DNA from: Centroscyllium fabricii
Taxonomy: Eukaryota
Length of the DNA: 64,000 nucleotides
Reading direction: 5' to 3'
NCBI GenBank assembly: GCA_051313645.2
Contig: JBNRSN020000008.1
Span: 247,194,001 to 247,258,000, forward strand
Part shown: positions 21,637-64,000 of the stretch, in pieces
Layout: every line of letters begins with the position of its first letter
Numbering within the stretch: the first letter of the stretch is position 1
The notes under the pieces: generated by a model
Database searches by the model: none
What the model was told of the DNA's origin: nothing
What the model saw: only the letters and a program-made list of their open reading frames with translations
Position numbers and translations under genes: made by a program

Positions 21637-21954
21637 CTACGGTTAAAACAATGACAGTGTCCGTCAATGAATATATTCCAGTAAGACACGTTTCAGTCTG
21701 TGTAGTAAAGAGAACGGTAAGTGCTCCGTAGAGTGCTTGAAGCAGATACATTGCTGCCCCTAAGCTGAGGATAAATATACACAGGTCGTGTTAGTGTGAA
21801 GTATAATGTGCATTATGAAAATCGGTGTGCACCAGCAGGGGCAAATTTTTTCTTTCTGTGCTATCAATTTCTTGTAATTCTATAAAATCAACACCCCATT
21901 GAGCGCTTCTAAATGACAAACATTGAAACACTAAAGCTGACAATATTCTTCATA

Positions 21955-32089: not shown

Positions 32090-35000
32090 TGACGTATCGT
32101 CAATAATGCAAAATACGAGTAGTTACCTTAACTACAGGCTTTTATTAACTTGAAGATGGAGCTAGTCTCCAGTCGAACACAAGGCAAGAATGACTGGGGG
32201 CAGGGCAGACCTTACCTATAAGCTCCCACCTGAGGGGAGGAGTTAGAGGTGTGGCTGACCTGGCCTTACCTGCAGTATTCCATACACAATGCACTCGCAA
32301 CTGTATAAAACTGTACACAAGTGGTAATATGGTTACCACATTCACACCTTTTTTGAGAATGAGTCCGGTGGGGTGAACGAGAGAGAAGAGTAAAAAAAAA
32401 AAAATTGTCCGTTTCAACAGCGTTCTATAAGTCTCTCCGACGGTCGTGTCTGCCCTGACGACCGCCGGGGTTCCGGCAGCGGTGCTGGTGCCAGTTGTGC
32501 TGTCGGGGTTCGGTCCTCCAGCAACAGTGCCCACGGCGTGGAGTCCGGCCCCAGGTTGTCGGCCAATACTGTCGAGGGCCCCGGTGTGTGGGTATATGTA
32601 GGCCAGTAATCGGTGGATGGTGGCTGGTCGGGTTGAGGCTCGACCTGGGGTTCTGCCCTAGTGCTCCCGGCGGGCGCCATTTCTCTGATTGAAACTGTGT
32701 ACTCGCGCCCATCCGGGAATTGCACGTAGGCATACTGCGGGTTGGCGTGCAGCAGCTGTACACTTTCCACCAGGGGGTCGGTCTTGTGGCCGCGGACATG
32801 CTTTCCAAGCAAGACTGGCCCTGGCGTTGTGAGCCATGGTGGGAGTGCTGTCCCCGATGTCGACTTCCTGTGGAAGGAAAATAACAGGTTGTGATGTGTA
32901 GCATTTGTAGCCATACACAGCAGAGAGCAGATGGAGTGGAGTGCGTCTGGGCGGACTTACTGCCAACGGGAAACATGAAGGCCTCTGGACTTCAGGCCCA
33001 GGTTGACCGCCTTCCAGATGATCCCGTTCTCCCTTTCTACCTGGCCGTTCCCCCGTGGGTTGTAACTGATCGTTCTGCTTGAGGCAACCCCTTTCTGAAG
33101 CAGAAACTGACGCAGCTCGTCGCTCATGAACGACGACCACCGGTCACTATGGATGTAGCTGGGGAGACCAAAAATGGTGAACAGCGTGGTGAAGTGTTTG
33201 ATCACCATTGCGCTCGTCATGTCTGGGCAGGGTAAGGCGAAGGGGACGCGGGAGAACTCGTCCACGACCGTGAGGAAGTACGAGTTGCGGTCAGTGGAGG
33301 GGAGGGGGCCTTTGAAGTCCACGCTCAGATGTTCAACGGGCGGGTGGCCTTGATGATGTGCGCCGTGTCTGGCCTGTAAATGTGGGGTTTGCACTCGGCA
33401 GAGACAGGGAACTCTCTGGTCATAGCCTTAACCTCCGTGAAAGATTAGGGAAGGCTACGGGATTTTACGAAATGGGCGAGTCTGGTGACACCCGGGTGGC
33501 AGAGGCGATCGTGGAGGGCTATCAGCCGGTCCAGCTGCGCGCTGGCGCACGTTCCCCTGGACAGTGCATCCGGGGGTTCGTTGAGCTTGCCTGGACAGTA
33601 AAGAATGTCGTACTCGTATGTCGAGAGTTCGATCCGCCACAGCAGGATCTTATCATTCTTGATTTTACACTTTTGTTTATTATTAAACATAAGCACCATG
33701 GACCGTTGGTCGGTGAGCAGGGTAAAACGCTTACCGGCCAGGTAATGGCGCCAGTAGCGCAATGCCTCCACAATGGCCTGAGCCTCCTTTTCCACTGCTG
33801 AGTGGAGAGTTTCGGGTCCCTGTAGGGTCCGGGAGCAAAACGCTATGGGCCTGCCTGCCTGATTCAGGGTGGCGGCAAGGGCGAAGTTCGAAGCATCACT
33901 CTCCACCTGGAAAGGGATGGACTCATCAACGGCGTGCATGGTCGCCTTGACAATGTCTTCCTTAATCTGGGCGAATGCTATTTGGGCTTCTTCCGAGAGG
34001 GGGATGACGTCAGCCTTGAGGAGCGGTCTGGCCCTATCCGTAAACTGGGGAACCCATTGCGCATAATAGGAAAAAAATCCTAGACATATCCTCAGGGCTT
34101 TGGGGTTGTGAGGTAGGGGCATTTCCTGTAGGGGACGCATACGCTGTGGGTCGGGGCCGATTACCCCGTTTTCCACCACGTATCCGAGGATAGCGAGCCG
34201 ATCTGTACTAAAGACGCACTTCTCTTTATTGTACGTGAGATCTAGCCATTTCGACGTGTGGAGAAATTTGGCGAGGTTGGCATTGTGGTCCTGCTTGTCA
34301 TGGCCGCAGATGTTCATGTTGTCCAGGTAGGGTAAGGTGGCCTGAACCCGTTCTGGTCAACTGTACGGTCCATCTCCCTTTGGAATACCGACCCCCCATT
34401 GGTCACACCAAAGGGGACCCGGAGGAAGTGATAGAGCCGACCGTTCACCTCGAAGGCGGTGTACTGGCGGTCGGATTTCCGGATTGGGAGTTGGTGATAT
34501 GCCAACTTAAGTTAGATTGTTGAAAAGACCTTTTTACTGGGCGATCTGGTTAACCATATCCTAGATGCTGGGAACGGGGTATGCGTCAATCCCGGTGTAG
34601 TGGTTACTCGTCTGGCTGCAGTCAATGACCATGCACAGCTTCTAACTGGTCTTAACCACCACGACCTGGGCCCGCCAGGGGCTAGTGCTGGATTCAATTA
34701 TCCCCTCTTGCTGCATATGCCCGATTTCCGACCTGATAAATGCCCGGTCCCACGCACTGTAACGCCAGCTCTTGGTAGCAATAGGTTTGCAGTTGGGGTC
34801 GAGGTTGGCGTACAGCGAGGGGGGTCGATTTACAGGGTGGATAGGCCGCAAGTCGGGCTCCGCTTTAAGAAAGGATTGTCTCGGCTACTGATGGTGAGGT
34901 GGGCCAGGGTCCCACCGAACTCCATTGTCACGCTTTTCAGGTGGCACTGGAAATCCAATCCCAGTAAGACTGGGGCGCACAGTTGCTGGAGGATATAGAG

Positions 35001-36818
35001 CTTGAAATTGCGTTAGACGCAGTCCCTGACCATGAGCGTGGCGGAGCAGTAGCCGGTGACGTCCGCCGTGTGGGACTTGGAGGCAAGGCAGATTTGGTAG
35101 TGCATGGGCAGGGTCCACAGTCCATAGCGCTGCACTGTGTCGGGGTGGATGAAGCTCTCTGTGCTTCTGGTGTCGAACAGGCAGTTAGTAATGTGCCCGT
35201 CCACTTTAATCCCCATCATGGAATTTGATAGGGTGCGGCCTAGCCTGGTCAACAATGGCTGAGGCCGAAGTGTGTGTGTGTGTGTAGGGGCCCTTGGCTA
35301 GCTGGAGCCGTTCACAAGATGGCGGCTCCCGTGGTTCACACGCGGCTGACCGCGGTGGACAAGATGGCTGCACCAGGGGTCGCACATGGATGGCCGCTGA
35401 AGACAAGATGGCGGCGCCCGTGATTCACACGCGGCAGGCCGCAGTGGACAAGATGGCGGCGCCGGGGGGGTCGCACATGTCTGGCCGCTGAAGACAAGAT
35501 GGCGGCGCCCGTGATTCGCATGCGGCGGAATGTGGCAGATGAGATGGCGGTGCCCGTGATTTGCATGCAGTGGACCATGCTGGGTGAGATGGCGGCATTG
35601 GGGGGTCGCACATGGCCGGCCACGGCCGCCTCTGGCGTGGCGGCACCCGTGCCACGCGCGCAGCCGGCATCCGCCATACAGGAATGGGGGATTGAAGCAC
35701 CCGTGATTTACCCCCGGACCGCTGCTGGGTCACGCTGCAACAGTTTACCTTGGGCCATGGGATGGCGTTGGAGGTCTGGATCTGGACACTGGGGCCGAAT
35801 TGCAGGCCCTGGTGTAGTGTCCCTTTTTGTTGCATCGCTCGCAGGTCGCGCTCCCCGTGGGGCACTGAGCTCACGGGTGCTGTCCCTGGCTGCAGAAGTA
35901 GCATCTTCACTCCGACGGCGTCTTCAAAGCTGCCACTGCCACTGCCACTGTGAGGTTCTCGGCCTGTCGTGGTGGCACCCAGGAATCGAGGGTATCATGT
36001 GGGCCTTGGCCGCCGTATGCCTCTGGCTTGTGGTGCGCTCCGTCTACCGCATTGGAAATGGAGATCGCGTCTTCCAGTGACAGAGTGTCCTTTTCCAGCA
36101 GCCACTGGCGGGCCTGGCTGGACCTGATTTCGGCGACGTATGCATCCCATACTAGGAGATCCGTCTCCTCCTCTGCCATTCGTGGCTGGCAGTCGCAGGC
36201 CCGTGCGAGGGCTTGAAGTGCCAACAGGAATTGTTCATTCTACTCACCGAGCTGTTGTTGTCTGGTCGCTAGGATGTGTCTGGCATGGACCGAGCGGACC
36301 GGGCGCAAGTAGCATTCCTTCAGTTTATTCACTGCCTCCGTGTAGGTTGTGAGGCCGCGGATAAAGGAGTATAACAGGCTGCTGATTCTTGACGAGAGGA
36401 CCTCCAGTTTGTCCCCGTCGCTCTTTGCCTTTGCGGCCTTCATGTAGGCCTCGACTAGGCCGAACCATGGTTCAAAAGCGTTAGCAGCGTCTGGTTCTTG
36501 AGGATTTAAATCCAACCTGACCGTTTTCACTGTGTTACTCTCCATTTTAAAATCAAGTTAATAAAATTGATGCATCGTCCATAATGCAAAAGACGTGTAG
36601 TTACCTCAACTACAGGCTTTTATTAACTTGAAGATGGAGCTAGTCTCCCGTTGAACACAAGGCAAGAATGACTGGGGGCAGGGCAGACCTTACCTATAAG
36701 CTCCCACCTGAGTGGAGGAGTTAGAGGTGTGGCTGACCTGGCCATACATGCAGTATTCCATACACAATGCACTCACAATGATTTACAACTGTACACAAGT
36801 GGTTATATGGTTACCACA
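32090..36818 (-). mobile_element. Gypsy/Ty3 LTR retrotransposon (gag-PR-RT-RH-IN), frameshifted
   Basis: 251-bp LTRs at 32090-32340 and 36568-36818 (TG..CA, roughly 7% different by eye); 5-bp TSD CAACC at 32085-32089 and 36819-36823; PPT at ~32341-32355; PR FDTRS, RT PFGVTN, RH DASN and IN HSDR/NGQVER motifs. Confidence 0.93.
35315..35600. repeat. ~45-bp tandem repeat in the Gypsy gag-PR linker
   Basis: (C/G)A-AGATGGC core at 35315, 35360, 35404, 35449, 35495, 35541 and 35586. Confidence 0.8.
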
Positions 36819-38579
36819 CAACCTAAATAGGGGTATCAGGTCTGACAAACGAAATCAGACACGGAAGATAGGGGAACATTTCCACAACAACTCGGACACT
36901 TGGCGTATGTGGCAAGTCATACAGTCCATCACGGACTACAGCAGCCTCCCTACGGGAGGAACTCAACAACTTCTACACTCGCTTCGACAGGGACAACAGG
37001 GAGCCAGCCACCAATGTCCTGCAATCCCCGGAAGACCAGCAACTATCACTGTCCTCCTCCGACCTAAGAGATGCTCTACGTGGAGTGAACGCATGGAAGG
37101 CCGCGGGTCCTGACGGCATCTCCGGCCGGGCACTCAAAGAATATGCCGACCAACTGGCTGAGGTCTTTAGCGACATCTTCAACCTGTCACTGGCGAAGGC
37201 AGCTGCCGCTATCTGCTGCAAGTCACCACCATCATCCCAGTGCCCAAGAAAACGGGTGTGACGTGCCTGAACGACTTCCGCCCTGTTACACTGACACCCA
37301 TTATCATGAAATGTTTCGAGCGGCTGGTCCTGGCCCACATCAAAGCCAGCGACCCTGCCGCCCTGGACCAATACCAGTTTGCCTATCGCGGAAACGGATC
37401 AACGGAAGATGCTATCATTACGGCTCTTCACTCTGCACTAAACCACCTGGATAGCAAAAATACGTATATCAGAATGCTGTTTATTGACTACAGCTCAGCA
37501 TTCAACAACATCGTCCCCAGCAAGTTGTGTCCCAAACTCCTAACCCTCGGCCTGAACACCTCCCACTGCAACTGGACACTGGACTTCGTAACCAACAGAC
37601 CACAGTCTGTGAAGTTAGTCAACCTCACCTCCCCCCCCATCCTGAACACGGGGGCCCCACAAGGCTGTGTGCTGAGCCCCCTCCTGTACTCCCTCTTCAC
37701 CCATGACTGTGTATCTGTCCATGGCTCCAACACGATCATCAAGTTTGTGGACGACACCACGGTGCTTGGCCAGATGACGAACAACGATACGTTAGCCTAC
37801 TAGGATGAGATCCAGCGCCTTGTGGAATGGTGTGCCGACAACAACCTGGCACTGTGTACCAAGAAATCTAAGGAGATCATAGTGGACTTCCGGAACACTG
37901 AAAGCAGAAGACACACCCCCATCTGCATCCAAGTGGCTGAGGTGGAAACGGTGTCCAGCTTCAAGTTCCTAGGAGTCCAAATCACGGAAGACCTCTCCTG
38001 GTCACTAAACACCTGCTCTCTGGTTAAGAAGGCCCAACAGCGCCGGTACTTCCTAAGGAAGCTGAAAAAAGCCAAGCTCTCATCCGGCATTCTCTGCAAC
38101 TTCTATCGCTGCACAATCGAAAGCATACTGAGAAGCTGCATCACAGTCTGGTATGGACATTGCACCATCTCGGACCGGAAGGCCCTGCAGCGTCTAGTCA
38201 AAACTGCCCAATGAATCACCGGCACCCAGCTACCGTCAATGGAAAGCATCTACCTCAAACGCTGCTTACGGAGGTTTCTGAACATTATTAAAGACCCCAC
38301 ACACCCCAGCCACAGTCTGTTCGCCCCCCTGCCCTCCGGGAGACGCTACAGATCAATTCGCTCCCGCACGACTAGATTCAAGAACAGCTTCTTCCCCAGG
38401 GCTGTCAGCCTCCTGAACTCTAAAAAAAACTCCAGTACCTGCACACCTGAAAATGTACTTTACTGTATGCAATTGCATGTAATTTATTTGCACTACTCTT
38501 GCGAGTGGCAAGTCTTCGTCTCGTTGTATCATACTAGTACTCTGCAATGACAAAATAACTTGAATTGAAATGAATTCAA

Positions 38580-39769: not shown

Positions 39770-41370
39770 GTATTAAACCTGGCATTGTAGTTAGTAGTGA
39801 GGAGGATAGCAGCAGACGTCCGAATGACAGAGGCAGACTGGTGAAATAGTCAGAAACATTGCAGCTGACATTCAGTGCAGAGAAGTGTGAATTGATGGAT
39901 TTTGGACAGACAAATGTAAGATACCATTTATAGGAAATTGTAAAATGTTCCAGGGCTCTCAAGAGCAAAGTGCACAGACAAAGGTCATTAAAGATGTAAG
40001 GGCCAGTTGATCCATCTGTTGCATAAAATAACTTTAAGATATTTTGCTTTAAGAGTAGGGACACAAATACCAAAGGAAGGGGGGTATGCTTAACATTTGT
40101 AAATCATGGTTAGGCCTCAGCTGGAGCATTGTATCCAATTCTGGGCATCACACATTGGAAAGGATCTCCTGACCTTCTTAACGGTGCAGAGGAAATTTAC
40201 CAGAATTGCAGGATGATGGAAATAATTTAAATATGTGGTCAGATTGAGAAGCTGGGGTTGTTCACCTTTTTGCAGAGAAGGTTAAGGGAAGATTGGCCAG
40301 AAAGATAGCAGTGATGATGGTCTTCAGTTATATGGTGTGGCTGGAGAATCTGTGATTGTTGACCTTGGAGCAAACCAAGCATGTGCCATAAGGATGAAAG
40401 GTGGGGGTTCTAAATCTACAGCTCCTGGATGAGAAACAGAATACAGCTTAAACTAAACAGAGAAAAGGAGGCAAATACCAATTGCTGAATACAGCAGAAC
40501 ACAAGGTCCAATAGTGAGAGTGCGAGCAGAAATTGATCAAACTGTTTAAGAGGGGTACACGGAGAGAATGAAAACAGATTAGCGGGTAACATCAATCTTC
40601 CTTAATAAGCGATGGAGGGAAAGTGGGGCCGAATATTTTCAAAAGAGGAAATATTTTTGTGGAGGCAGAGACCATGACTGATGTACTGAATGTTTAGTTT
40701 GCATCTGTCTTCACACAGGAAGAGGATAAGTAAATGTTGCAGTACATCTACTGGATAGGATAAAATAGATAGCAAGGGTGTGAACAATAACTTGGTGTTA
40801 ATAACATTAACACATCACCTGATCTATATGGGATGTATCCTCAATTGCTGAGGGAAGTGAAAGAGGAGATATCAGAAGTTCTGACCACATTCTTAAAAAA
40901 CACGATGAGAATGGGAGTGGCGCGTGAGGAATGAGTAACTGTAAAATGTCAGATGACTGTTCAAAAAACTGAAGAGCGATATAAAAGTTAATGGCAGGCT
41001 AATCAGTTTACAATCAGTGTAGTGGAAACTACTGGAGACGATTGTCCAGGGCAATATTAATTCTCACTTACAGGAGCATGCTTTAATATGTGGCAGTCAT
41101 TTTGGAATGGTTCAAGTAAATTCTTGATTGTCTAACCTGATTGCGTATTTTGGTATAATATCAATGATGGTTGATGAAGAATTTGCAGTAGATTTTATAT
41201 GTCTATAAATGCATTTAAGTATCAATTAACAGACTCACTCGAAGTGCAGAATCTCATGATATAATAGGCACGATGGTCAATTGAGTACTCAATTGGCTAC
41301 GTGATAAGATGCAGAGAGTAGTGTTGAACGGATGCTTCAGTGACTGTGCGGAAGTACGCAGTGTTATAGA
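39770..41370 (+). mobile_element. Old CR1 fragments within a segmentally duplicated block (paralog at ~57170-59430)
   Basis: Decayed CR1 motifs; collinear similarity to the 57-59 kb block, including non-CR1 flank (39480 vs 56870). Confidence 0.65.
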
Positions 41371-41491
41371 AAAATAGACATAGAAACATAGAAGATAGGA
41401 GCAGGAGTAGGCCATTCGGCCCTTCGACCCTGCTCCGCCATTCAATGAGATCATGGCTGATCATCCAAACTCAGCACCCTGTCCCTGCTTT

Positions 41492-42135
41492 TGACAGGTT
41501 AGGTTTTCTTTCACCCACAGTTGTACGATAAACTCGAGACACCACACACGAGAAGTTGAGTTCAACTTGTTTATTCGCCAGCTGGCTCAGGTAATTTACA
41601 AGCATCTACCAAGTCTGATGACTAGGCTCAGCGAGTAAAGAACTGCGCTGAACAGTCAAAAGGTTCGATCTTTTATTCTTAAAAACCACAAACAGCTTAT
41701 TTTAGTTAAACCAATCACTGACTTACATACAGAAGTAGGGCAGAGGATTCAAAGAAATATTTACAGTTTCTGCAATAACAAAGGCTGTGAGACAAGGGGA
41801 ATATAGTGTGGTTAGCTGCAGTCGCCTAACCGTTATCTTTTGTTCGCCTGGAGCAGCTATCTCCACACGAGGTGTGACTTTTTTGAGCCTGCATCAGCCA
41901 TCCTGAAACGCTTATCTCTATACTCGGGCGCGCCATCTAGCTTGTGGTGAACTAGACTGTCGAGTCAGAGCTTGACCTATTTTCTGCAACTGCAGAGCAA
42001 GCAGTTTTGGTCTTAAAGCAGAAGTAAGGTATTTGTACAAAATGCAATTTATTCTAGTTTCTCCCAAAGCTCCTATCTTCTATCTAGGGATCATCTCGGG
42101 TCTGTCCCGGCCTCGGGAGATATTTTACTCTGTCA
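41492..42135 (-). repeat. ERV 3' LTR (PPT at ~42136-42147)
   Basis: TGACAG..CTGTCA termini; adjacent ttccccccttt is the polypurine tract on the minus strand. Confidence 0.97.
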
Positions 42136-42435
42136 TTCCCCCCTTTTGTCATTACCATGACAATAATTTACCTCAAAACACGGACTTATGAGAAGTGGTT
42201 TATTGGTCCTACCAGAGTTTATTTCTGATGTCCGGTGCCTTATAGCCCCCGAAGCCTGGACTAAGTGATATACAGAGTCGACAGGCCGGCTTGTTGAGAC
42301 CACTCTCTTCCCTAGTCCCATTGTCTCTAGGTTATACCCCCCTTTTATTAACTGTCTTTTAGGTCTCTAAACTAATTTGGTCTTGAGGCCCTGGTGACGT
42401 GTTGTTTTTAGGACCTATGGGGAGGGGGTAGTTCG

Positions 42436-42810
42436 TCACTGGGGTAGTTCATACGAGTGTTCATCTTGTTGGTCGTCTTTCTCAGGTAGGTGAACCTGAT
42501 TGAGTCTTGCACATTCCTTCTCCATGGCTTCTCTTTCTTCCTGGTTGATGAGCCATGCATCTCCATCCTCGATCTGTTCTTCTTGATCATCTCCTTTATC
42601 CGCTATCAATCGGTGCAGCATCATCTTCTGGGTGGTCTGTAATCCATCAACCACATCTCCAATGCTTCCTACCGAACGCATCATTCTGGCAAGAATACAT
42701 TTAAGCACAGCAAGTCCAACCAGGATGCAAAGTAGAATGATTCCGAGGTATATGGCTATATTAACAAACCAGTCATACCATCCAATAATTCCCCAGTTTT
42801 CTCCAGTCGT
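42436..42810 (-). pseudogene. env: env TM anchor and cytoplasmic tail, out of frame with the upstream env ORF
   Basis: WGIIGWYDWFVNIAIYLGIILLCILVGLAVLKCILARMM followed by an acidic tail; fusion peptide and heptad region absent. Confidence 0.75.
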
Positions 42811-43612
42811 GCCTCCTCTTGGGTGCTTCCTTAGATTCGTCCATGCAGGTGATGGGGCTTTCAGTAATCCCCCACAGAGGGGAGACGGTGAACATATCTA
42901 GTACTGATTCGGGATTATAGCAGATAGGACCAGAATTGGGTCCGAACACGGACTCATGTATTTTGTGGAATAGATTAGTAATACCATTAGCTGGAGGTCC
43001 TGGGTTATTATTACTGGGGTCCTCGGGGGTAGGAGGCCCATCGGCTGTTGAGATACTTGGAAGGGGGGGGTGCCAGTCTGTTGATTCTATACTACGTTTT
43101 ATCCTAGACTTATCTTTGCGATCTAATCTCTTGGAGTCGGCTAACTCTGCTCGCCTACCTACTTCAGGATCTGGATGTGACTGAGCTTCCCGTAAGCACA
43201 TTCCCTCTGGCAATGTCTGCTTATACTTTACATCCTCATTATGTTTGTGTTCACATTTAAAATCAAATTTACATTCTTGGTAGTTGCAAGGCAACCCCCA
43301 CTGGTTTCTGAGTTCTAAGGTTCTTTGTCTATCAGTCTGTTTCAACCAACCGGTACAAAAGTCATTTTTGGTTACAGTCCAGCTTCCGAATGGATCCGAA
43401 GGATCAACACAGGTGATCATGTCTCCTTTACACAGGTGTCTGACTTTGTCCTTCTTGGCTCCAGATGAACACGTAAAGGTTCTACTTCTGTTCTTGCTGG
43501 TCGGTTGTCTGCTGATCTGTGGCTTCCTCTGTTCCTCATCAATTGTGATCCATTGTCCCTCAATGTCCACCAGTAGGTATAGCAGCGTGATGAGGACGAG
43601 TGGTACCCTCAT
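42773..43612 (-). CDS. env: Truncated Env (signal peptide plus N-terminal SU-like region), 279 aa, no membrane anchor
   Basis: ATG 37 nt after a strong acceptor (43651-43650); MRVPLVLITLLYLLVDIEG leader; Cys-rich region, RIKR basic site, proline-rich stretch, NLF..CY motif; located between IN and the PPT. Confidence 0.75.
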   Translation of the reverse strand: MRVPLVLITLLYLLVDIEGQWITIDEEQRKPQISRQPTSKNRSRTFTCSSGAKKDKVRHLCKGDMITCVDPSDPFGSWTVTKNDFCTGWLKQTDRQRTLELRNQWGLPCNYQECKFDFKCEHKHNEDVKYKQTLPEGMCLREAQSHPDPEVGRRAELADSKRLDRKDKSRIKRSIESTDWHPPLPSISTADGPPTPEDPSNNNPGPPANGITNLFHKIHESVFGPNSGPICYNPESVLDMFTVSPLWGITESPITCMDESKEAPKRRHDWRKLGNYWMV

Positions 43613-43694
43613 TTCTTCGGTTTTATGATCCTCCCGTTATTGCTACGGTCTGAAAGAATACAAAAACTAACAAAAGGGTTATTGCATCTTCTTT

Positions 43695-45311
43695 TTACTG
43701 ATCTTTAAGTGTCCCCACCTTCTTGACCTCCTCGACCCTATCCCCCCCCTTCTGATTACTTGTAATCAGTTTGCAATGATGAAGGTGAACCCAAGCATTG
43801 CGTCCTTCAAGTTTTGCTGCTGTGGGGGTGGTCAAGAGTACTTGGTAGGGACCAGTCCATCTTCTCTCCAGACCTTTGTGTGTCCAGTTTTTAACAAGGA
43901 CAAAGGTGCCTGGGACGATTTCTTGGGACAACTGGAGAGTTGGTGTAGGCCCATGGGCAGATCGGACCTATGAATGTGCATAACGTAAAGCATCAGTTAG
44001 ATTTAAAACATAGTCAGTTATTTCCTCAGTCATGTGATGAAAGTGGACTGTAGCAGGTGGTCGATCACCCCACGGGGTCCTGACTGGGCGACCATAGACA
44101 ATCTCTGATGGGGAAAGTTGGTGCCGTCCTGCTGGTGTAACACGGATCTGAAAAAGAGCTATTGGTAGTAATTTAAACCATGTTGACCCAGTTTGCTCCA
44201 CCAGTTTGGCGAGCTTATTTTTAAGGGTCTGATTCATGCGTTCGACAAGTCCTGCTGCTTGAGGATGATAAGCACAATGAAGTTCTTGTTCAATCCCTAA
44301 CTGTTTGCACATTTCTTTATTAATCTCCCCAATAAAGTGTGGTCCATTGTCAGAACTGATCCGAGCAGGAATACCATACCGAGGGATAATTTCGCAGAGC
44401 AATACTTTTACAACTGTTGAGGCTTTGTTATCAGAAGTGGGATATGCCTCTATCCATTTACTAAACACATCAACAATTACAAGAACATACTGATAACCAT
44501 TACATTTTGGCAGAGTTATATAATCCATTTGGAGAGTGTCAAAGGGACCCGAAGGGAGAGGGGTTTTTCCTTTGGCAAATTTTGAACCCGGGGATGGGTT
44601 ATGTTGTGAGCATACTAAACATCTATTAGAAAATGTAGCCGCCAGGGCTTGAAGTCTCGGGTGCCACCAGGTTTTAAGTAATAGATCGGTAGTTTGACGG
44701 GCGCCACAATGAGTAAGAAAATGAACACTTTCAATCACCCATCCCGCTAATACATCAGTCATACATGCTTGCCCAACTGGAGTAACCCAGAGTCCCTCTG
44801 AGTTACTCTTACAAGAGTGTTGGGTCCATAATTGCTTAACAGACTCAGGAGCGTCCCCCTGTAATAAAATAACATCCTTAATGGTTGGCATTGGTTTATC
44901 AGACGCAAAGATTCCCGGTGAAGGGGTTTTGGCTTGTGTCATCATTTGTAATGTAACCATCTGATTACCGAGTGAGGCCTTTTTGGCAGCAAAATCGGCA
45001 TTTCTATTTCCTATATCAACAGGGGTAGTCCCCGCAGTATGAGCTGAACATTTAATAACTGCTATTGATGTGGGCAACATGATAGCGAGCAAAAGATCAG
45101 AAACGAGTTGGCTGTTTGAGATCAAGGCACCTGATGAAGCAATAAAACCGCGATTCTTCCACAACTGTCCAAAATCATGCACTACTCCAAAGGCATACCG
45201 AGAGTCAGTGTAAATGTTCACAGACTGGTCATGAGCAAAGACACAAGCTTGAGTAAGAGCGTACAGTTCTGCTTGCTGGGCTGAAACGGGGTGCTGAATG
45301 GCCCCAGACAC
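43695..45311 (-). pseudogene. pol: pol 3' part: RNase H plus integrase, one in-frame TAG at 43970-43968
   Basis: SAQQAELYAL, IYTDSRYAFG, H..H..C..C, QMDYI / SSDNG / GLVER (DDE), then in the same frame RWTGPYQVLLTTPTA..WVH. Confidence 0.93.
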
Positions 45312-45484
45312 ACAGGTCTTCCCATCTTGGAAAACATTTTACTGCTTTGACCTGTGTCTCAGCTGAAGATCTGAGAGGTTCTTCTTTTACAACTTCCTCC
45401 CAGTCATCACTTAAGTCCTCATCTACTTCTTCGTCTGTGTCTATTGGTTCTTCAGCAACAGTAACAATCAATTGTTGAAATGTT

Positions 45485-46138
45485 TTACTGGGGGAAGGTT
45501 TGCCGTTTTTTGCCCCTTAGTCTAGTTTTAGATCTAGTTCCGTCTGATACTTTGTCATGATACTGTGGCGGGTTGCCTGAGGCAGACGGCGTGGACACTC
45601 CGGTACTGGAGTGTCCCCGAGGTACTTTCCTTTGTGTACCTCGTGTACCCTTCACGGGAGGAGGTGCCAGCCCGGAGGGTGGTCCAACAAATATATTCGT
45701 CGAAACAGGAGTCTGTGATACTGGCGGAGGTTGGATTGGTGGAGGTACTACTTGGACAGGTGGCGGCACTATACTGGGATATATTAATGGTACTTGAGGG
45801 GCGGCAGATTGGACTGCTACGTACGGGGGAGGTGGTGCCAATGGTGTCACAGGCGCGGTTGGTCCATAGAGATTCGGGGGATACCATTCCAAAAGACTAT
45901 CGCCATCTGGATCATCTAAACCAATGCCTACCATCGACTTACGTAAGTCTTTTACCTCGGCCGTTAGGTCCCGTTTGGAACCTTTTTGTTGTTTTACAAA
46001 CGTTACCTCCTTTTTCAATATGTCTTTCCAAAATACTGTAAAAACATTGAATATAACTGGAAAAAAATTGTTATTCATATTTAAGCAAATCAAATCAAAC
46101 TGCTTCGGAAGGTTTCTCCATAGCAACCGCGACTCCAA
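45485..46138 (-). pseudogene. gag: gag fragment with late domains
   Basis: GPTAPVTPLAPPPPY (PTAP and PPPY) in a proline-rich p12-like stretch; CA and NC are missing. Confidence 0.75.
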
Positions 46139-46923
46139 GATTAACTCTAAGACTGAAACGTAATCTTTTGTTAAACAATCCTTTTGTTGTTCTCAGTTTT
46201 TAGACACCAGCTTAATTTAAATAAGTTCCAGTTTTTTTTTTTTTAAGACAGACTTTCCGAAATAAAGTTTATCAATTTTTTTTTTTTTTTTTTTTAAGGG
46301 GACTCGGTCTCCTTTGATTAAACGTTTCATCAATTACCAATTCACGGGCACTCCCCATGGGCTTTATCCCTCCTCAAGAGCAGCAGCTGATCAAGAAGCT
46401 ACTTTCGAGGTCGGATCTATTACACAATCTTATTCGTACATTCGTAAAACTCCAAAATCCAATCCAAGACAAGAGGGTTAAATGCTTTTAACACAGACGT
46501 GGGTGGAGTTAAACCACACATAACAGAATAAATTGGGGAAAAAGGTTAACTCGTATTACTCTTAAACATAGGGTCGTTTTCATTTCATAATTCACTACAT
46601 TTTGTACATCAGTTAACACACACACACTTCATTCAACTCCAACCAAATCCATTCATACGGCAGAAAGAATACAACACCAACAACCGAGAGAGAGAGAAAC
46701 ACGCATCCTGTGACCTTGGAGAGGAAAGCACAGGCTTTTAAAGAGACAGTCCATTCAGGACGACGGAACACATTCTGTAGGTTTCCCCCACCCTCAGCCC
46801 CAGGGGTCCTGAGGGCCAGCCTCTCCCAACAAAGGTGGACCAATTCGTCCAGTCCCGCACTTCTCGACACACCACACAATGAGAACCACAAAAACAAGAA
46901 CCAAAACCACCACAAATTCAACA

Positions 46924-47145
46924 CTACCCTGGCTCTTCCATCACCACCATTTCCCATATCCTTTGTTGTGCAACTTTGACGGTGGCTACATTACTTGATC
47001 CTCCCGTTGGCCATTCAACCAATCCCAATCTGTGCGACAGTCCAGCGGAAAGTTTTCTAAATTTTTCAATTTTATCTGGATGTTTGTCACATAACTGTTG
47101 TAATGGACTGGATGGGTCTGCACAAGTATCTACAACATTTCCCAT
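46924..47145 (-). CDS. Matrix-like short ORF
   Basis: MGN.. myristoylation-type start, SPL and WPxGGS motifs typical of class I MA. Confidence 0.6.
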   Translation of the reverse strand: MGNVVDTCADPSSPLQQLCDKHPDKIEKFRKLSAGLSHRLGLVEWPTGGSSNVATVKVAQQRIWEMVVMEEPG

Positions 47146-47352
47146 GATCTTACTATCTGTTTATTAGTGTGACCCTATTGTCTTCTTCGTCCTGATCAGA
47201 CTTTACTGGTACGTTAATTCCTTTTTGTTCATATAGATCAAAACACCAAATTAAAAGACAAATAATGTTTAATATCAAAATTACTGTAAATCCAAGTGTA
47301 TCCAAATTCATTAATCTAATTTTATTGAGAGACTCGTTAATACTCCATTTTT

Positions 47353-47910
47353 AGTCAGAGAACCACTCCATCTGACCTTTCTAATCACCCTAATATTTTA
47401 TTTTAAGTCAGAGAACCAATCTATCTGACTTCTCTAATTACCCTAATAGTCAGAGAACCAATCTATCTGACTTCTCTAATTACCCTAATAGTCAGAGAAC
47501 CAATCTATCTGACTTCTCTAATTACCCTAATAGTCAGAGAACCAATCTATCTGACTTCTCTAATTACCCTAATAGTCAGAGAACCAATCTATCTGACTTC
47601 TGTAATTTATTTTTTTAGTCAGAGAACCACTCCATCTGACTTCTCTAATTTATTTTTTTAGTCAGAGAACCACTCCATCTGACTTCTCTAATTTATTTTT
47701 TTAGTCAGAGAACCACTCCATCTGACTTCTCTAATTTATTTTTTTAGTCAGAGAACCACTCCATCTGACTTCTCTAATTTATTTTTTTAGTCAGAGAACC
47801 ACTCCATCTGACTTCTCTAATTTATTTTTTTAGTCAGAGAACCACTCCATCTGACTTCTCTAATTTATTTTTTTAGTCAGAGAACCACTCCATCTGACTT
47901 CTCTAATTAC
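47353..47910. repeat. 13-copy 42/43-bp hairpin tandem array in the ERV leader
   Basis: AGTCAGA-N11-TCTGAC(T) at 47353, 47406, 47448, 47490, 47532, 47574, 47617, 47660, 47703, 47746, 47789, 47832 and 47875. Confidence 0.95.
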
Positions 47911-48150
47911 CTTAAAGACCCATTCAATTTAAGGTTAGACTCGTGGGTGTCACAACTGTATTTTATTTGATTCCGTCACACAGTCTGCCCCCTCGTGGTG
48001 AACTCGAGTTTACTCAAAAATCGGTTTTGACAGTCAGGAGAACAAAGTGGCACTTTAAATAAATGTACTCACTTTGGTGGCCTATTCCTTTCAATCAATC
48101 CGTTGAGCAACTCTATATCAACCACGGGTGGTCAGAACTGTGATTTTGGA

Positions 48151-48168
48151 ATCCCGGACGAGCCCCCA
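48151..48168 (-). promoter_or_regulatory. Primer binding site, tRNA-Pro
   Basis: TGGGGGCTCGTCCGGGAT, 2 nt downstream of the 5' LTR; the canonical Pro PBS as in MLV. Confidence 0.95.
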
Positions 48169-48170
48169 AA

Positions 48171-48814
48171 TGACAGGTTAGGTTTTCTTTCACCCACAGT
48201 TGTACGATAAACTCGAGACACCACACACGAGAAGTTGAGTTCAACTTGTTTATTCGCCAGCTGGCTCAGGTAATTTACAAGCATCTACCAAGTCTGATGA
48301 CTAGGCTCAGCGAGTAAAGAACTGCGCTGAACAGTCAAAAGGTTCGATCTTTTATTCTTAAAAACCACAAACAGCTTATTTTAGTTAAACCAATCACTGA
48401 CTTACATACAGAAGTAGGGCAGAGGATTCAAAGAAATATTTACAGTTTCTGCAATAACAAAGGCTGTGAGACAAGGGGAATATAGTGTGGTTAGCTGCAG
48501 TCGCCTAACCGTTATCTTTTGTTCGCCTGGAGCAGCTATCTCCACACGAGGTGTGACTTTTTTGAGCCTGCATCAGCCATCCTGAAACGCTTATCTCTAT
48601 ACTCGGGCGCGCCATCTAGCTTGTGGTGAACTAGACTGTCGAGTCAGAGCTTGACCTATTTTCTGCAACTGCAGAGCAAGCAGTTTTGGTCTTAAAGCAG
48701 AAGTAAGGTATTTGTACAAAATGCAATTTATTCTAGTTTCTCCCAAAGCTCCTATCTTCTATCTAGGGATCATCTCGGGTCTGTCCCGGCCTCGGGAGAT
48801 ATTTTACTCTGTCA
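48171..48814 (-). repeat. ERV 5' LTR
   Basis: Matches 41492-42135; PBS is adjacent. Confidence 0.97.
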
Positions 48815-48879
48815 CTTTCTCCCCATATCCCTCGATCCCTATCGAGCCTGCACCGACACATATCCCACCCTATCCCCGT

Positions 48880-51800
48880 ATGGTGCAACGAGAAGGGATT
48901 TAAATTCCTGGGGTTTTGGTACCGGATCTGTGGGAGTTTGGACCAATGCAAACTGGATTGTTTGCAAGTGGGCGGGACCGGGACCGATGCCCTGGTGGGA
49001 GTGTTTGGTAGTTCTGTTGTGGAGAGTTTCAACTGAAATCGCAGGGGAATGTGAACCCGTGGAGGGAAAGGGACGCATGGATAGAACAACAAGACAGGAT
49101 GGAGAAAAGCAAAAGTGGAAGGCAGCGATATCAAATGTGTAAATGAAAAAACGGCTACAGTAAGTAATAATTCCAAAATGACTAAGTGTTTTAAAAGAAC
49201 AAGCCCAAAGGCGTTGTGTCTTAATAAAAGGAGCATTCGCAATAAGGTGGAATAATTATCTGCGCAAATAGCTGTAAACGAATCTGATTTTATTGGGATT
49301 ACAGAGACATTGCACCATGGTGACCAAGGCTGGGAATTTCAAATCCTGCGGTATTCAATATTCAGAAAATCCAGGCCAAAATGAAAGAGTGCTCGGGGGA
49401 CATTACAATTTAAAGAGGAGATTAACATAATCTAAAGGAACGATGTTAGCTTTGATGATGTGTAATCTGTATTGGTAAAATTGAGACGTATCAAGGAGCA
49501 GAACACGTTAGTCGGTGGTGTATACAGACCTGCAAACGTTTATGCAGAATTTGGGGACAGCATTAAACGGGAAATTAGAGAGCTGTGGAAGAAGGTTACA
49601 GCAGGTGTAATGGGTGACTTAATCAACATTTAGATTGGGCTAACCAACATAGTTACAATAATGTGGAGGAGGAATTCCGAGAGTGTATACAGATGTTTTC
49701 TTTGACCAATATGTGTAGGAACCAACTAGAGGTCAAGCCATTTTAGACTGGGCATTATGTAATGAGAAAGGATTAATTAGCAATGCTGCTGTGCGAGGCC
49801 CCTTTGGGAGGAGCGATAATAAACTGATAGAATTCCTCATGCGACTCCATTTTACCAATACAGATTACACATCATCAAAGCTAACAACGTTCCTTTAGAT
49901 TATGTTAATCTCCTCTTTAAATTGCTAATTACCCCGAGCACTCTTTCCTTTTGGCCTGGATTTTTTGAATATTGAATACCGCTGGATTTTGAATTCCCAG
50001 CCTTGGTCACCATGGTGCAATCTCTCTGTAATCCCAATAACATCAGATTAGTTTACATCTATTTGCGCAGATAATTCATCCACCTTATTGCGAATGCTCC
50101 TTGTATTAAGACGGTGGATAGGCAATGGCGAACTTTTGAAGATCCCATGAATGAACTATAGAAATTTATCATCTAAGATTGGGATAAAAGAAAACATTGA
50201 CTCAATCGTGGATAAGAAGGGAAATTCGGGATAGCATAATACACAAGGAAAAGCCTTATTCATTGGCTACGAATAGCAGGAAAAGCTGAGGAAGAGGATC
50301 TGTTTAGGATTCAGCAGAGGAGGACAATGCGATTAATTAAGAGGGGTAAAACAGAATATGAGAGAAAGGTTGAAGGGAACATAAAAACTGACTGTAAAAG
50401 CTTCTACAGATATGTGAAGAGAAGAAGACTGGTGAAGTCAAGCGTAGCTCCCTTGCAGTCAGAATCAGGGGAATTTATAATGGGGAGCAATGTAATGGCA
50501 GGCGAATTAATGACATACGTTGGTTCTGTGATCACAAAAGAGGAAACCGGTAAATTTCCGCGGGTGTCGGGGTACATGGGCTCTAATGAGAGGGAGGAAT
50601 TTAATTACATCGGCGTTTGTAAGGAAACCATGTTAAGGGAATAGACGGCACTCAATGCAGATTAGTCCCCAGGGCCTGATTATCTACATCCTAGGGTACT
50701 GAAGGAAGTGGTCTTATAAATAGTAGATGCATTGCTGGTCATCTTACACATTTCTAAAGACTCCTGAATAGGTCCCATGGTTTGGAGGGTAGCCAATATA
50801 ATCCCACAATTTAAAAAAGCTGTCAGAGAGAAAATGGGGAATTATAGACCGTTAAGCCTGACATTAGAAGTTGGAAAAAGGCTAGAGTCCATTATAACAA
50901 TAACAGAGCACTTGGAAAGCAGTGACAGGGTCGGACAGAGTCAACATGGATTTTCAATGGATAAATCATGCTTCACTAATCTACTGGAATTTTTTGAGAA
51001 TGTATCGTGTAGAAGAGATAAGGGAGAACCAGTGGATGTGGTGTATTTGAACATTCAGAAGGCTTTCGATAGGTCCGGCACATGAGACTGGCGTGCAATT
51101 TCAAAGCACATGGGATTGGGGTAAGGTACTCACTTAGATAGAGAACTGGTTGGCAAAAAGGAAGCCACGTGTTGAAATAAACGTGTATTTTATTGCGAGT
51201 GACAGGCAGTGACTAGTTGGGGACCGCAAGGATTATTGTTTCGACCCCAGGCAACAAAAAAGTGGGTGGTCTTGTGTGCTTTAAGACGAATGCAGAGAAC
51301 GTCCAGTATGATTTGGACAGGTTGGATGATTGGGCAGAAGTATGGCCTGTGCAATATAATGTGAATACACGAAGTTTATTGATTTTGGAGGCTAAGCCAT
51401 GAAGATAGATTATTACCTGAAGGGCAGTTGATTGGGAAAAGTTGAAGGGCAACGACACCTGGTTGTCATTGTGCACCAGTTGCTGAAGGATTCCAGTGCA
51501 GGAGCAGGGATCTCTTGTGGCAGTTGTACAGGACCTTGGTGAGGCCACACCTTGACGGTCGTGTGCATTTTGGTCGCCTTATCAGTGGAAAGTTGTACTT
51601 GCCATGGAGGGAGTGCAGATACATTCAACATACTGATACATGGGATGGTAGGAATAACGTATATAGAAAGGTTGTTTCGGAAATACATTAATTCGCTAGA
51701 TTTTAGAAGAATGAGGGGTGATCTCATTGAAAATTATAAAATTCTAACAGGAGAGAATAGATGTAGGAAGGTTGTTCCCGATGGCCGGGGAGTCCAGAAC

Positions 51801-57679: not shown

Positions 57680-58445
57680 GAACATTAACCAGTATGGTCC
57701 AGGGATGATGGACTTCAGTTTTGTGGCGAGCCTGGTGAAGCTGATATATTTGAACTTAGGGCAGAGGAGGTTAAGGGAAGATTTATCAGAATGGTACCAG
57801 GGAAGATGGACTTCAGTTATGTGGAGAGGCTGGTGAAGCTGGGGTTTTTCAACTTATGGCATAGAAGGTTCATGGAAGATTTATCAGAATGGTAGCAGGA
57901 AAGATGGACTTCAGTGAAGTGGAGAGGCTGGAGAAGCTGGGGTTTTTCAACTTATGGCATAGAAGGTTCATGGAAGATTTATCAGAATGGTAGCAGGGAA
58001 GATGGACCTCAGTGAAGTGGAGAGGCTGGTGAAGCTAGGGTTTTTCAACTTATGGCATAGAAGGTTCATGGAAGATTTATCAGAATGGTAGCAGGGAAGA
58101 TGGACCTCAGTGAAGTGGAGAGGCTGGTGAAGCTGGGGTTTAACAATTTATGGCAGAGGAGGTTCATGGAAGATTTATCAGAATGGTAGCAGGGAAGATG
58201 GACTTCAGTTAAGTGGAGAGCCTGAAGGACCTGGGATTTTTCAACTTATCGCAGAGAAGGTAAAGGGAAGATTGATCAGAATGGTACCACGGATGACGGA
58301 CTTCAATTATGTGGAGAGTCTGGCGAAGCTGGGTGATTTCATCTTATGGCAGAGAAGTTTAAGTGAAGATTTACCAGAATGGTAGCAGGGATGATGGACT
58401 TCAGTGAAGTGGAGTGGTTTTAGAAGCTGGGAATATTCTCCTTTG
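57680..58445 (+). repeat. 98-bp minisatellite (~8 copies) derived from the CR1 ORF2 C-terminus
   Basis: GAAGATT recurs at 57777, 57875, 57973, 58071, 58169, 58267 and 58365. Confidence 0.92.
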
Positions 58446-61400: not shown

Positions 61401-62165
61401 GATCAGGGGACTCAGAAAGGAGCGGATGTCGATCATTGGGTCTTTCTTTGATGTATTTCTTAGCTCTGCAATGCAGGCTCTATCTGAGCTATCGGTGGCC
61501 GATATGCGCCACTATTCTACTGATAAAAAAACATTATTCACCAAATGCAGTCAAGTAACAAATTTAACAGTGCTTTATCATACCAAGGGATGATCATTTC
61601 GTTCCAATATGAATTTAGGAGACCATTCTTCACCCTGAGAGTGTACACAATGTGGAAAATGGGACCAAATGGTGTCTTTACAGAGAATAGCACAGATACA
61701 TTTAAGGTGGTACTAATTGGCAACATGAGGCAGAAAGAATAGGGCGTTATGCTCATACCGTCATCTGAATTACATTGGGGGCAGTTTGGAGTGGGATTTA
61801 ATCAAAGGCACAGTCCTGTTAGGGCCGAATGGCCTTGTCTCTCAGCCGCTATTTTCATGTAATTCTGTTTAATTTCATGCTGAATTTCACAATGACAGCA
61901 AATGCTGTAAGTGGAAGCCTGTGGTTTCAGCTCTGAAGCGCTTCACCTAGGATAGGGAGGAATTTAACCCCTGACAGTAAGAACAAGAATGTGTATAAAC
62001 ACATTGAAACAAATACATTGTGCCATTCCTTCTTATAATCTTTCAGCCGATAACTTAGTTAATTCCTGGTTACAGCTCCAACATGAGTGGGGCAGTAGCA
62101 GACTGAAACTCGTTGATGATATTTATTAGTACAATTCAATTCAATTATTAATTAAAATATTATGT

Positions 62166-64000
62166 TGTGGAGGCATACAGGGCTGAAGGACCACGCTGGA
62201 CACAGGGTTCGGAAGACTGTCTTTATTATAGGTACTGTTACAGCTAGGGCCAGGTGGAAAGAGAGAGAGAGCTTCCTGGCGCTCAGATATTTAAAGGTCC
62301 CGCGGCTGCTGACGTCACAGCCGGTGACGTCCGCGCGTCGCCCGATGGGCGGGGCCGCCTTGCGCCGCCTGGTGACGTCATCACGTCGTGGGTGCCGGCG
62401 GCGTCCGTGCGTCCCCCGACGGGCGGGGCCGTCCCGCAGCTTTCCAGGAGCGGGTTCGTTGCACTGCCGGTGGGCGTGTCGCCACACAGCTCGCCCCCAG
62501 AATCCGTGAGGGAAAGCGTAGTTGGGCCTAGAGGAGATGGAGACATAAAAGAGAGCAAACACACATTTCGATATCACACGGAATGTCCGACAGTTTTCCG
62601 CAATGGCCTGTTGTTGTGGCCGGCATGTGTTGTCTGCTGTTCCGTGGTTCGAGGTATGGTGTTGTGGCGGCCTGCTGGTGTGGCCCGCACGTGTCATCTC
62701 GGGCGAGGCACTGAGGTGGCCTGATGGTGCGGCCGGAACGTGTCGTGCGCTGCTGCTTGTTCTGCGTGGGAGTGTGGGCGGGTTTTGGTGCGGTAGGGCG
62801 TCCGCGCTTTGGTGGTTGTGCGGGGACTGTTGTCTCGCCCGCCATTACATGTGCTGGTTTGAGCCGGTCAATGGATACATTCTCGGTTCTGTTGCCCATT
62901 TGAATGTCAAACGTTTTGCGTCCCGCCCGAAGCACTTTGAATGGTCCATCGTATGGTGGCTGAAACGGTGCTCGGTGTGCGTCATGGCGGACGAACACAT
63001 ACTTGGCGTCTTGGATGCCCTTGGGAACACGTGTTGCCGGCTGTCCGTGCCGGGCCACCGGAAGTGGTTTGAATGCTGCTGCCTGATTGTTAAAATCTCT
63101 GAGGCAGCACTCGGCTGACCAGGGTTCGTTTGTTTCTGCCACAAACTCGCCTGGTACCGTTAGCAGTTGGCCATAAACCAACTCGGCTGCCGAGGCGTTT
63201 AGGTCTTCTTTGGCCGCCGAGCGGAGGCCGAGCATTACCCAGGGCAGGCGGTCATTCCAGGTTGCATCCTGGAGGCTGGCCCGCAGGGAGGTCTTGAAGG
63301 ATCGGTGGAACCGTTCGCAGAGGCCGTTGGCCTGTGGGTGGTAGGCGGTGGTTCGGTGCAGGGTTGCCCCGAGGTCGTGAGCGATGGTTGACCATAGGGT
63401 TGAAGTGAATTGGGGGCCCCTGTCTGAAGTGATGTCGTTGGGGACGCCGAACTGGGCGACCCAGGTGGGGTTGGTGAGGGCCGGGAACTCAGCGAGCAGC
63501 GTGGTGTACGTGTCGGAGTTCCGGGCTCGGCAGTGGGCTGCTGAGTTGGTCTGGTGTGCTGGGCCTGCGGAGCAAGGGATGGTCGACATGAGGTGGATGT
63601 CGACCAGACGGCGCTGGGTAACGTCGACTAGGAGCCCGTGGGCGCACAGAAAGTCGGCCCCGAGTAGGGGTATGTTAACCCGCGCGGTAATGAAGTCCCA
63701 CATGTACCTGTGGCCAGCTAGTTTGATGGTAAGCTGGCGGGTACCGAACGTGAGTATCTCGGAGCCGTTTGCGGCTTCGAGTGGTGGGCCTTTGGTGCCC
63801 TGCTTGGATTCTGCGGGGGAGGCTGGCACGATGCTGTGCTGCGCGCCTGTGTCGCAGAGGAAGCGGAGGCCTGAGACACTGTCTGTGACAAAGAGCAGCG
63901 CTCTGGAGCGGCCGACGCACATGGTGGGGCCTGGGCTGGTTTGGGGTTTGAAGGTGCAGGGCTGGACGCAGCGCTGCGCTTTGGCCTCAAACCTGGTGTG
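62166..64000 (-). mobile_element. CsRn1-like Gypsy LTR retrotransposon, internally deleted, runs off the window
   Basis: 3' LTR 62166-62486 (TGTGG..CCACA), PPT-like tract at ~62487-62502, and the gag knuckle / PR / IN ORF. Confidence 0.88.
62528..64000 (-). CDS. Open Gag(C-term)-protease-partial integrase fusion lacking RT and RNase H
   Basis: HTRFEAKAQRCVQPC in frame with FLCDTGA..LLGADFL, joined at EFPALTNP|TWVAQFGVP to TSDRG..NGLCER..PYDGPFKV. Confidence 0.8.
   Translation of the reverse strand, partial: HTRFEAKAQRCVQPCTFKPQTSPGPTMCVGRSRALLFVTDSVSGLRFLCDTGAQHSIVPASPAESKQGTKGPPLEAANGSEILTFGTRQLTIKLAGHRYMWDFITARVNIPLLGADFLCAHGLLVDVTQRRLVDIHLMSTIPCSAGPAHQTNSAAHCRARNSDTYTTLLAEFPALTNPTWVAQFGVPNDITSDRGPQFTSTLWSTIAHDLGATLHRTTAYHPQANGLCERFHRSFKTSLRASLQDATWNDRLPWVMLGLRSAAKEDLNASAAELVYGQLLTVPGEFVAETNEPWSAECCLRDFNNQAAAFKPLPVARHGQPATRVPKGIQDAKYVFVRHDAHRAPFQPPYDGPFKVLRAGRKTFDIQMGNRTENVSIDRLKPAHVMAGETTVPAQPPKRGRPTAPKPAHTPTQNKQQRTTRSGRTIRPPQCLARDDTCGPHQQAATTPYLEPRNSRQHMPATTTGHCGKLSDIPCDIEMCVCSLLCLHLL

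Follow-up and report, generated by a model that had tools for sequence, protein, structure and literature searches.

An anchor-less env stub in a young, non-autonomous endogenous retrovirus of the cartilaginous fish Centroscyllium fabricii

Introduction

Human suppressyn, the product of an old and conserved host gene, is a secreted protein that lacks a membrane anchor. It is derived from a retroviral envelope protein (Env) and is described as able to cause receptor interference (PMC9967133). Feline Refrex-1 (encoded by ERV-DC7 and ERV-DC16) and FeLIX (encoded by enFeLV) come from defective proviruses, comprise a signal peptide together with the N-terminal part of the surface subunit (SU) without a transmembrane subunit (TM), and have been shown to be expressed, secreted and capable of blocking (PMC9245640; PMC11019853). 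The present analysis concerns a comparable arrangement in a 64,000-nucleotide stretch of Centroscyllium fabricii DNA (assembly GCA_051313645.2, contig JBNRSN020000008.1, positions 247,194,001 to 247,258,000 of the forward strand; hereafter the window, to which all coordinates refer), which contains an endogenous retrovirus (ERV) whose env gene has been reduced to a 279-codon open reading frame (ORF) for an anchor-less product, here called the stub. The stub is probably a by-product of ordinary retroviral decay in a young, internally deleted provirus, with its open frame explicable by the recent age of the insertion.

In layout, the stub resembles Refrex-1 and FeLIX: its predicted length of 279 aa is close to the 273 aa of FeLIX (PMC11019853), and its order of signal peptide, N-terminal domain and proline (Pro)-rich stretch is similar to that of both (PMC9245640). 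Membership of the same functional class would require expression, secretion and blocking, properties demonstrated for the two described proteins. FeLIX is reported to be common to domestic and wild cats (PMC11019853), whereas the long terminal repeats (LTRs) of the present provirus are still identical. A furin-type site within the stub, moreover, sets it apart from Refrex-1 and FeLIX, and neither by sequence nor by fold was its N-terminal domain found to match a solved retroviral receptor-binding domain (RBD). The likeness to human suppressyn, which binds ASCT2, lies in the Env origin and the lack of an anchor.

Gamma-type Envs accompanied by an epsilon-like pol have been described in fishes and chondrichthyans (10.1101/2021.11.23.469661; 10.64898/2026.05.06.723177), and the same kind of pol lies beside env here; a CXnC Env subtype has also been defined (10.1101/2021.11.23.469661). 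Both surveys deal with full-length Envs bearing TM hallmarks, and the requirement of ORFs of at least 400 codons in one of them (10.64898/2026.05.06.723177) would omit a 279-codon stub. Neither survey, in the text consulted, mentions a furin-type site directly behind the N-terminal domain (10.1101/2021.11.23.469661; 10.64898/2026.05.06.723177). In a literature search that left most subscription journals outside its reach, neither a secreted truncated Env from sharks or rays nor an early furin site in fish ERV Envs was the subject of any paper found; the survey supplements may nevertheless list the family. The early furin-type site is a more unusual lead than the stub itself.

Truncated env and its internal deletion

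The ORF occupies 42773..43612 on the minus strand (279 codons; stop codon at 42775-42773) and represents the true 5' end of env, which agrees with the original prediction of a long frame opening with a signal peptide and encoding a product without an anchor. From the N terminus, its predicted layout comprises a signal peptide (residues ~1-20), a cysteine (Cys)-rich beta domain (~45-125), the motif RIKR (170-173), a Pro-rich stretch (178-208) and the start of the next SU domain (~210-265), followed by ~13 codons read in the wrong frame. The only strong hydrophobic stretch is N-terminal (19-aa Kyte-Doolittle mean of 1.63 from residue 6, the next highest being 0.76), and the signal peptide is supported both by hydropathy and by alignment with relatives.

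An exhaustive phmmer search with the ORF recovered eight relatives (P0001-P0008), of which P0008 is a 646-aa full-length Env with an immunosuppressive domain (ISD), a heptad region and a CX6C motif. The ORF matches residues 27-207 of P0008, and in comparisons with other relatives the head match reaches approximately residue 265 of the ORF. An orphaned env tail in another frame (42436..42813, minus strand; 125 codons without a stop), comprising the membrane-proximal segment, anchor and cytoplasmic tail, matches P0008 534-613 (BLASTP, 33% identity, E 9e-14), and its strong anchor (Kyte-Doolittle 3.04) lies at 42759-42703, outside the ORF frame. Because the matched segments of P0008 lie apart, with 326 of its residues between the head and tail matches, the two env pieces are placed as meeting near 42830-42810 with ~300 codons gone; the approximate junction (42810..42830, minus strand) is bracketed by head matches that reach 42818 (P0002) and a tail match that begins at 42813 (P0008). 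Judged by this alignment, the missing ~300 codons would have encoded most of SU, the fusion peptide, the heptad repeats, the ISD and the cysteine loop. Consistently, the fusion peptide, heptad repeats, ISD and CX6C(C) motif are absent from both env pieces and present in P0008; CXXC is found neither in the ORF nor in the tail piece, and P0008 also lacks CXXC and has CX6C without a third Cys. Among the features of an intact gamma-type Env, the signal peptide was thus found, whereas the SU/TM furin site (whose region is deleted) and an in-frame anchor were not. The invariant Cys231 has been kept while the Cys-rich SU region downstream of it is lost, a combination that constitutes a predicted folding liability.

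The two env frames overlap by 125 nt, in which the longest run is a G5 located upstream of the inferred junction. A programmed -1 frameshift leading to the anchor was rejected, as the overlap contains no slippery heptamer. With no such heptamer and no run of more than five bases, the overlap points neither to ribosomal slippage nor to a typical homopolymer error. The out-of-frame anchor noted originally is present, but the break that separates it from the ORF is the junction of a ~300-codon deletion rather than a point frameshift. These observations also bear on a reading in which an error of assembly or sequencing produced the break and the true product is a membrane-anchored, fusion-dead stub. 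The tail frame remains open for 125 codons and is conserved with P0008, and the provirus holds long A runs, where long-read assemblies err; yet the missing ~300 codons are unexplained by an assembly error and the overlap offers no run of a suitable kind, which makes this explanation very unlikely.

Neutral decay or selection

The identity of the two LTRs sets a 95% upper bound of 0.0023 substitutions per site on divergence since insertion, under which the probability that the ORF would still be open is 0.71-0.86 for indel ratios of 0.2-0.05. For the period preceding insertion, the pol remnant (547 codons, one stop) and the env tail (125 codons, no stops), neither of which has an apparent means of being translated, serve as controls. 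Together they give one lesion per 672 codons, a rate at which the 266-codon env head would be free of lesions with a probability of 0.67. When three, five or eight extra gag lesions are assumed, this value falls to 0.43, 0.29 and 0.15, respectively. The open frame therefore needs no selection, because the LTR age allows it and because the pol remnant and env tail are similarly intact, and retention of the ORF by selection is not detectable at this one locus. The original reading as a defective ERV carrying an anchor-less env is sound, and the element is young, but the intactness of the ORF, which it had taken as a sign of function, is accounted for by the neutral expectation.

Several points weigh against an explanation by decay. 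The gag-like region, with 25-36 stops per frame over ~600 codons, is far more damaged than the 3' half, so that constraint on the 3' half before insertion is possible; this contrast does not single out the env head, and the heavier gag damage may possibly reflect a recombinant origin of the element. By analogy with gamma-type Envs (PMC9967133), a receptor-blocking stub would need the part of env that is retained, and the N-terminal piece, with an even number of Cys and a predicted beta sandwich, may therefore fold and be secreted alone. That seven of the eight relatives also lack an anchor, and that P0007 has an internal gap of its own, would favour decay, but these features may stem from contig ends or gene-prediction artefacts. 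Finally, the comparison has low power, drawing on a single locus with no sibling copies.

Under decay, the most probable course of events would be as follows. Several lesions combined with identical LTRs suggest that an already defective genome was copied in trans by a helper and inserted recently, having kept all the cis signals for transcription, splicing, packaging and reverse transcription by that helper. Out-of-frame joining, as happened at the env deletion, is expected for two-thirds of random deletions. An active LTR followed by normal env splicing would then yield a message for the anchor-less 279-aa stub, which, if translated, would enter the endoplasmic reticulum and might be held there since its last domain is cut off. 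Were the stub to pass quality control, furin cleavage at RIKR could release an N-terminal piece of 153 aa, with 8 Cys, for secretion and leave a remnant of 106 aa; in the absence of selection, blocking of a receptor would be incidental.

One alternative is that the stub acts as a host factor of the Refrex-1/FeLIX kind, in which a secreted N-terminal domain occupies the receptor of the cognate virus and is maintained by selection. The signal peptide, the lack of an anchor and a length that falls among those of secreted antiviral truncated Envs (230-439 aa; PMC9245640) are in keeping with such a role, as are the complete N-terminal domain and the intact splice sites and LTR; in addition, Env loci are reported to be transcribed in adult catshark tissues (10.64898/2026.05.06.723177). 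However, nothing beyond the neutral expectation points to selection, the provirus inserted very recently, and the N-terminal domain finds no significant structural counterpart (see below). Secretion is not automatic either, given that one 188-aa truncated Env was described as not secreted (PMC9245640), and a 50-codon upstream ORF may lower translation. A host-factor role consequently appears unlikely.

Selection might instead operate at the level of the element, with the stub aiding the defective provirus or its helper as a soluble entry cofactor, or through superinfection resistance in producer cells, and riding along whenever the element is copied. The signs of copying in trans would fit this scheme, FeLIX is described as both a cofactor (for FeLV-T) and a blocker (PMC11019853), and the early basic site of the family suggests that the N-terminal domain is separable even in an intact Env. 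The same neutrality result applies, however, and neither a second provirus copy nor a solo LTR is present within the window, leaving an element-level benefit an improbable explanation.

Splice signals

The candidate major splice donor (GT at 48071..48072, minus strand) lies 78 nt after the 18-nt primer-binding site (PBS), and the candidate env acceptor (AG at 43650..43651, minus strand) follows a pyrimidine tract 37 nt before the first ATG (43612), with a branch-like TAAC ~30 nt upstream; the positions and contexts originally reported for both sites are confirmed. The donor conforms to eight of the nine consensus positions and is the joint best of 449 GT sites in the provirus, equalled by the one at 47910. 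In mononucleotide shuffles, GTRAGT was present in 7.5% of shuffled versions of the 150 nt after the PBS, a frequency that puts the donor, taken by itself, scarcely beyond chance. Among 531 AG dinucleotides, the acceptor ranks as the best YAG outside the LTRs, and its score was reached in 0.9% of shuffles, a figure that is optimistic since the threshold was set from the observed site. A donor after the PBS combined with an acceptor at the end of pol is the standard env arrangement of simple retroviruses, and the two candidate sites are, to judge from their placement, the ordinary env splice sites of the parent virus rather than the special splice circuit that had been proposed. The predicted first exon also contains the upstream ORF mentioned above (50 codons; 48132..48284, minus strand), which has a weak start context and ends 59 nt before the donor.

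Env relatives and the early furin-type site

The RIKR site (43094..43105, minus strand; residues 170-173) is present as originally reported, but not at the SU/TM boundary. Alignment of the ORF with seven of its eight relatives (P0007 was excluded owing to its own gaps) shows RIKR to precede the fusion region of P0008 by more than 250 residues, and its identification as an SU/TM site in the usual position was rejected on these grounds. In six of the seven aligned relatives, the interval that separates the N-terminal domain's final invariant Cys from the following invariant one contains R-X-[KR]-R, ~25-50 residues behind the N-terminal Cys-rich domain, and P0008 has only KR in this interval. At the start of the fusion subunit, R-X-X-R is found in neither P0005 nor P0008, the two relatives that reach that point. 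RIKR would accordingly be an early site of the family, either extra or relocated.

The piece before RIKR (residues ~21-173) contains eight Cys, five of which are invariant across eight sequences. Behind the site, the Pro-rich stretch has 10 Pro in 31 residues, relatives being much less Pro-rich there, and is followed by the first ~55 residues of the next domain. In gamma-type Envs, the RBD is described as part of SU's N-terminal half and as often followed by a Pro-rich region (PMC9967133); this correspondence places the retained domain of the stub in the RBD position, and receptor binding by the N-terminal beta domain is suggested by analogy.

Structural modelling gave limited guidance. A single-sequence fold of the ORF was unusable (predicted local distance difference test, pLDDT, 40), and an eight-row AlphaFold model predicted, with low confidence (mean pLDDT 51), a small beta sandwich at residues ~45-121. 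Compared against PDB and BFVD with Foldseek, this model yielded no match at E <= 0.001. The best VIA match (Z 6.8, root-mean-square deviation 2.5 over 70 residues) was to an unrelated fungal small beta-sandwich protein and falls within the range of common arrangements; no retroviral RBD is among the best 50 VIA matches, which does not exclude one. Sequence searches with the 279-aa ORF found no Pfam family, no PDB sequence at E <= 10 (with the single sequence or with the alignment profile), no match among 522 candidates in a word-index search of longer proteins, and no usable match in the ESM Atlas. A profile search returned one of 5,074 candidates, namely P0008 itself; no near-identical sibling ORF was found, which is weak evidence.

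Among solved structures, filovirus GP2 comes nearest to the TM of P0008 (E 3e-16 to ~1e-12, compared with 3e-7 for syncytin-2). P0008 also matches Pfam Ebola-like_HR1-HR2 and TLV_coat and is placed with chordate ERV Envs by the Atlas, with a weak recognition score. The homology of filovirus GP2 to non-mammalian gamma-type TMs has long been known (PMC9967133), and in the present case the GP2-like TM is a feature of the relative, the copy in the window having lost that region entirely. Two further observations concern the relatives. P0007 has its own internal gap of ~190 residues, which begins in a region similar to that of the env deletion described here, and the same N-terminal domain is followed in P0006 by an SU of the CWIC type and in P0008 by an SU that lacks CXXC and goes with a filovirus-like TM, suggesting that the N-terminal Cys-rich domain may be a module shared between Env types.

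Taken to its furthest point, the early site could denote a lineage with a three-part Env, in which furin frees a compact N-terminal beta domain, probably the unit that binds the receptor, situated before a fusion subunit of filovirus-like type. The deleted provirus would then keep precisely that module under intact LTR and splice control, amounting to a secreted blocker of the Refrex/FeLIX type at its birth and spreading as a non-autonomous element rather than as one fixed locus. Such a scenario is doubtful, and ordinary decay remains the preferred reading of the stub.

Organization of the provirus

The provirus spans 48814 to 41492 on the minus strand (7,323 bp) and is a young, non-autonomous class I ERV of cartilaginous fish. 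Its 5' LTR (48171..48814, minus strand) and 3' LTR (41492..42135, minus strand) are each 644 bp long, have TG...CA ends and are identical at 644 of 644 positions. A 4-bp target-site duplication borders the element on both sides (48815..48818 on the 5' side and 41488..41491 on the 3' side), and the flanks form one interrupted copy of a host repeat, other copies of which lie at ~1160-1370 and ~3560-3770. Putative promoter elements in the 5' LTR include ATTGG (48394) and a TATA-like A-rich box (48356), with AATAAA at 48254, and the 3' LTR has its poly(A) signal at 41575. The 18-nt PBS (48151..48168, minus strand), which we take to be of the tRNA-Pro type, lies 2 nt past the LTR, and a polypurine tract (42136..42147, minus strand) precedes the 3' LTR. 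The paired LTRs with their short duplication, the PBS and polypurine tract beside them, the env head and tail located 3' of integrase (the gag position being assigned by motif only) and a gamma/epsilon-type pol are all features of class I ERVs, though deletion of reverse transcriptase (RT) means that no RT tree is possible. A 274-bp inverted repeat, whose arms are 92% complementary and separated by 347 nt, is located 400 bp upstream of the 5' LTR (49218-50112).

Two internal deletions have shaped the coding region, one taking capsid through RT and the other the middle of env. The leader contains a tandem array (47347..47908, minus strand) of ~12 near-identical copies of 42-43 bp; the units fall into two subtypes, and several units bear a 7-of-9 donor-like site. 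A 52-codon leader ORF (47153..47311, minus strand), situated just upstream of the gag-like start in a different frame, has one hydrophobic stretch and no Pfam match above noise, and it could encode a small accessory membrane peptide. The broken gag-like region (45340..47145, minus strand) extends for 1.8 kb up to the RNase H junction and has a 73-codon Met-Gly start. It contains runs of A20 and A13 as well as a Pro-rich stretch carrying PTAP (45862) and PPPY (45832), motifs from which its identity as gag is presumed. Nine gag-like fragments searched against Pfam gave nothing above noise, and five searched against 128 proteins with phmmer gave no match.

Capsid, nucleocapsid, protease and RT are missing, and RNase H and integrase follow directly after the gag-like region. 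This pol remnant (43695..45338, minus strand; 547 codons) has its single stop (43970-43968) before the integrase C-terminal domain and matches Pfam RNase_H, rve, Integrase_H2C2 and MLVIN_C. A search for pol relatives scored 8,000 sequences and produced 162 matches; among the best 120 of these, the top match is a Leucoraja erinacea gene model (63% identity over 96% of the query), the top three are gene models of the cartilaginous fishes L. erinacea, Scyliorhinus torazame and Heptranchias perlo, and teleost and amphibian ERV elements follow at ~40% identity. The remnant is 38% identical to WEHV1 pol.

Genomic neighbourhood

Six FcRL/LILR-like immunoglobulin (Ig) exons lie on the minus strand at ~21.6, 20.0, 19.1, 16.3, 12.5 and 6.8 kb (window 6480-21650), the one at ~21.6 kb having its best matches to FCRL5, Fc-epsilon-RI alpha and LILRB2. 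The proposed placement at an immune-receptor locus is therefore correct insofar as the Fc-receptor-like exons are real, but a link with the provirus is not borne out, as 19.9 kb separate the 3' LTR from the nearest exon and two of the six are damaged (12243-12557 has an in-frame stop, and ~18900-19100 is cut short by a repeat). These exons provide the context for a further possibility, namely that the env product is immunomodulatory or that the LTR exerts a cis effect on the nearby Fc-receptor-like gene, with which it shares its strand. The ISD lies in the deleted part of env, which leaves the originally suggested immunomodulatory role unsupported, and gypsy-like and LINE (long interspersed nuclear element) fragments occupy the interval between the LTR and the nearest exon. 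A chimeric LTR-to-Ig transcript with a viral start codon was rejected, since the viral first exon offers no open ATG across the donor. On balance, an immune or cis role is highly improbable.

The Ig exons arose partly from a tandem duplication of ~3.75 kb, and an interstitial telomere-like array of GGGTTA and GGGTTC units (10276-10839) lies within their locus. Elsewhere in the window are a GC-rich gypsy-like LTR element remnant (32145-36239) with RT, RNase H and integrase frames at 32960-34356, a second GC-rich element that begins near 62150 (62150-64000), and, on the plus strand at 36700-38550, a LINE-type RT followed by a frame matching Pfam ALKBH8_N (E 9e-18), which is presumably the C-terminal region of the LINE itself and not a host gene. 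A 98-bp tandem array of 7.3 copies occupies 57700-58414, with a related single copy at 40246-40366. No Rfam match was found in the 40-50 kb interval, and a search for tRNA genes gave none.

Biological implications

As it stands, the locus adds one more young, defective ERV to the record and is useful in indicating that retroviruses were recently active in a cartilaginous fish. Should the stub prove to be expressed, secreted and selected, soluble-Env receptor interference would extend from mammals to the oldest jawed-vertebrate lineage, and the provirus would offer a case for studying co-option at its start. Regardless of this locus, the pairing, within one Env family, of a filovirus-like TM with a conserved furin-type site behind an N-terminal domain was not met in the literature searched and is worth examining in full-length copies.

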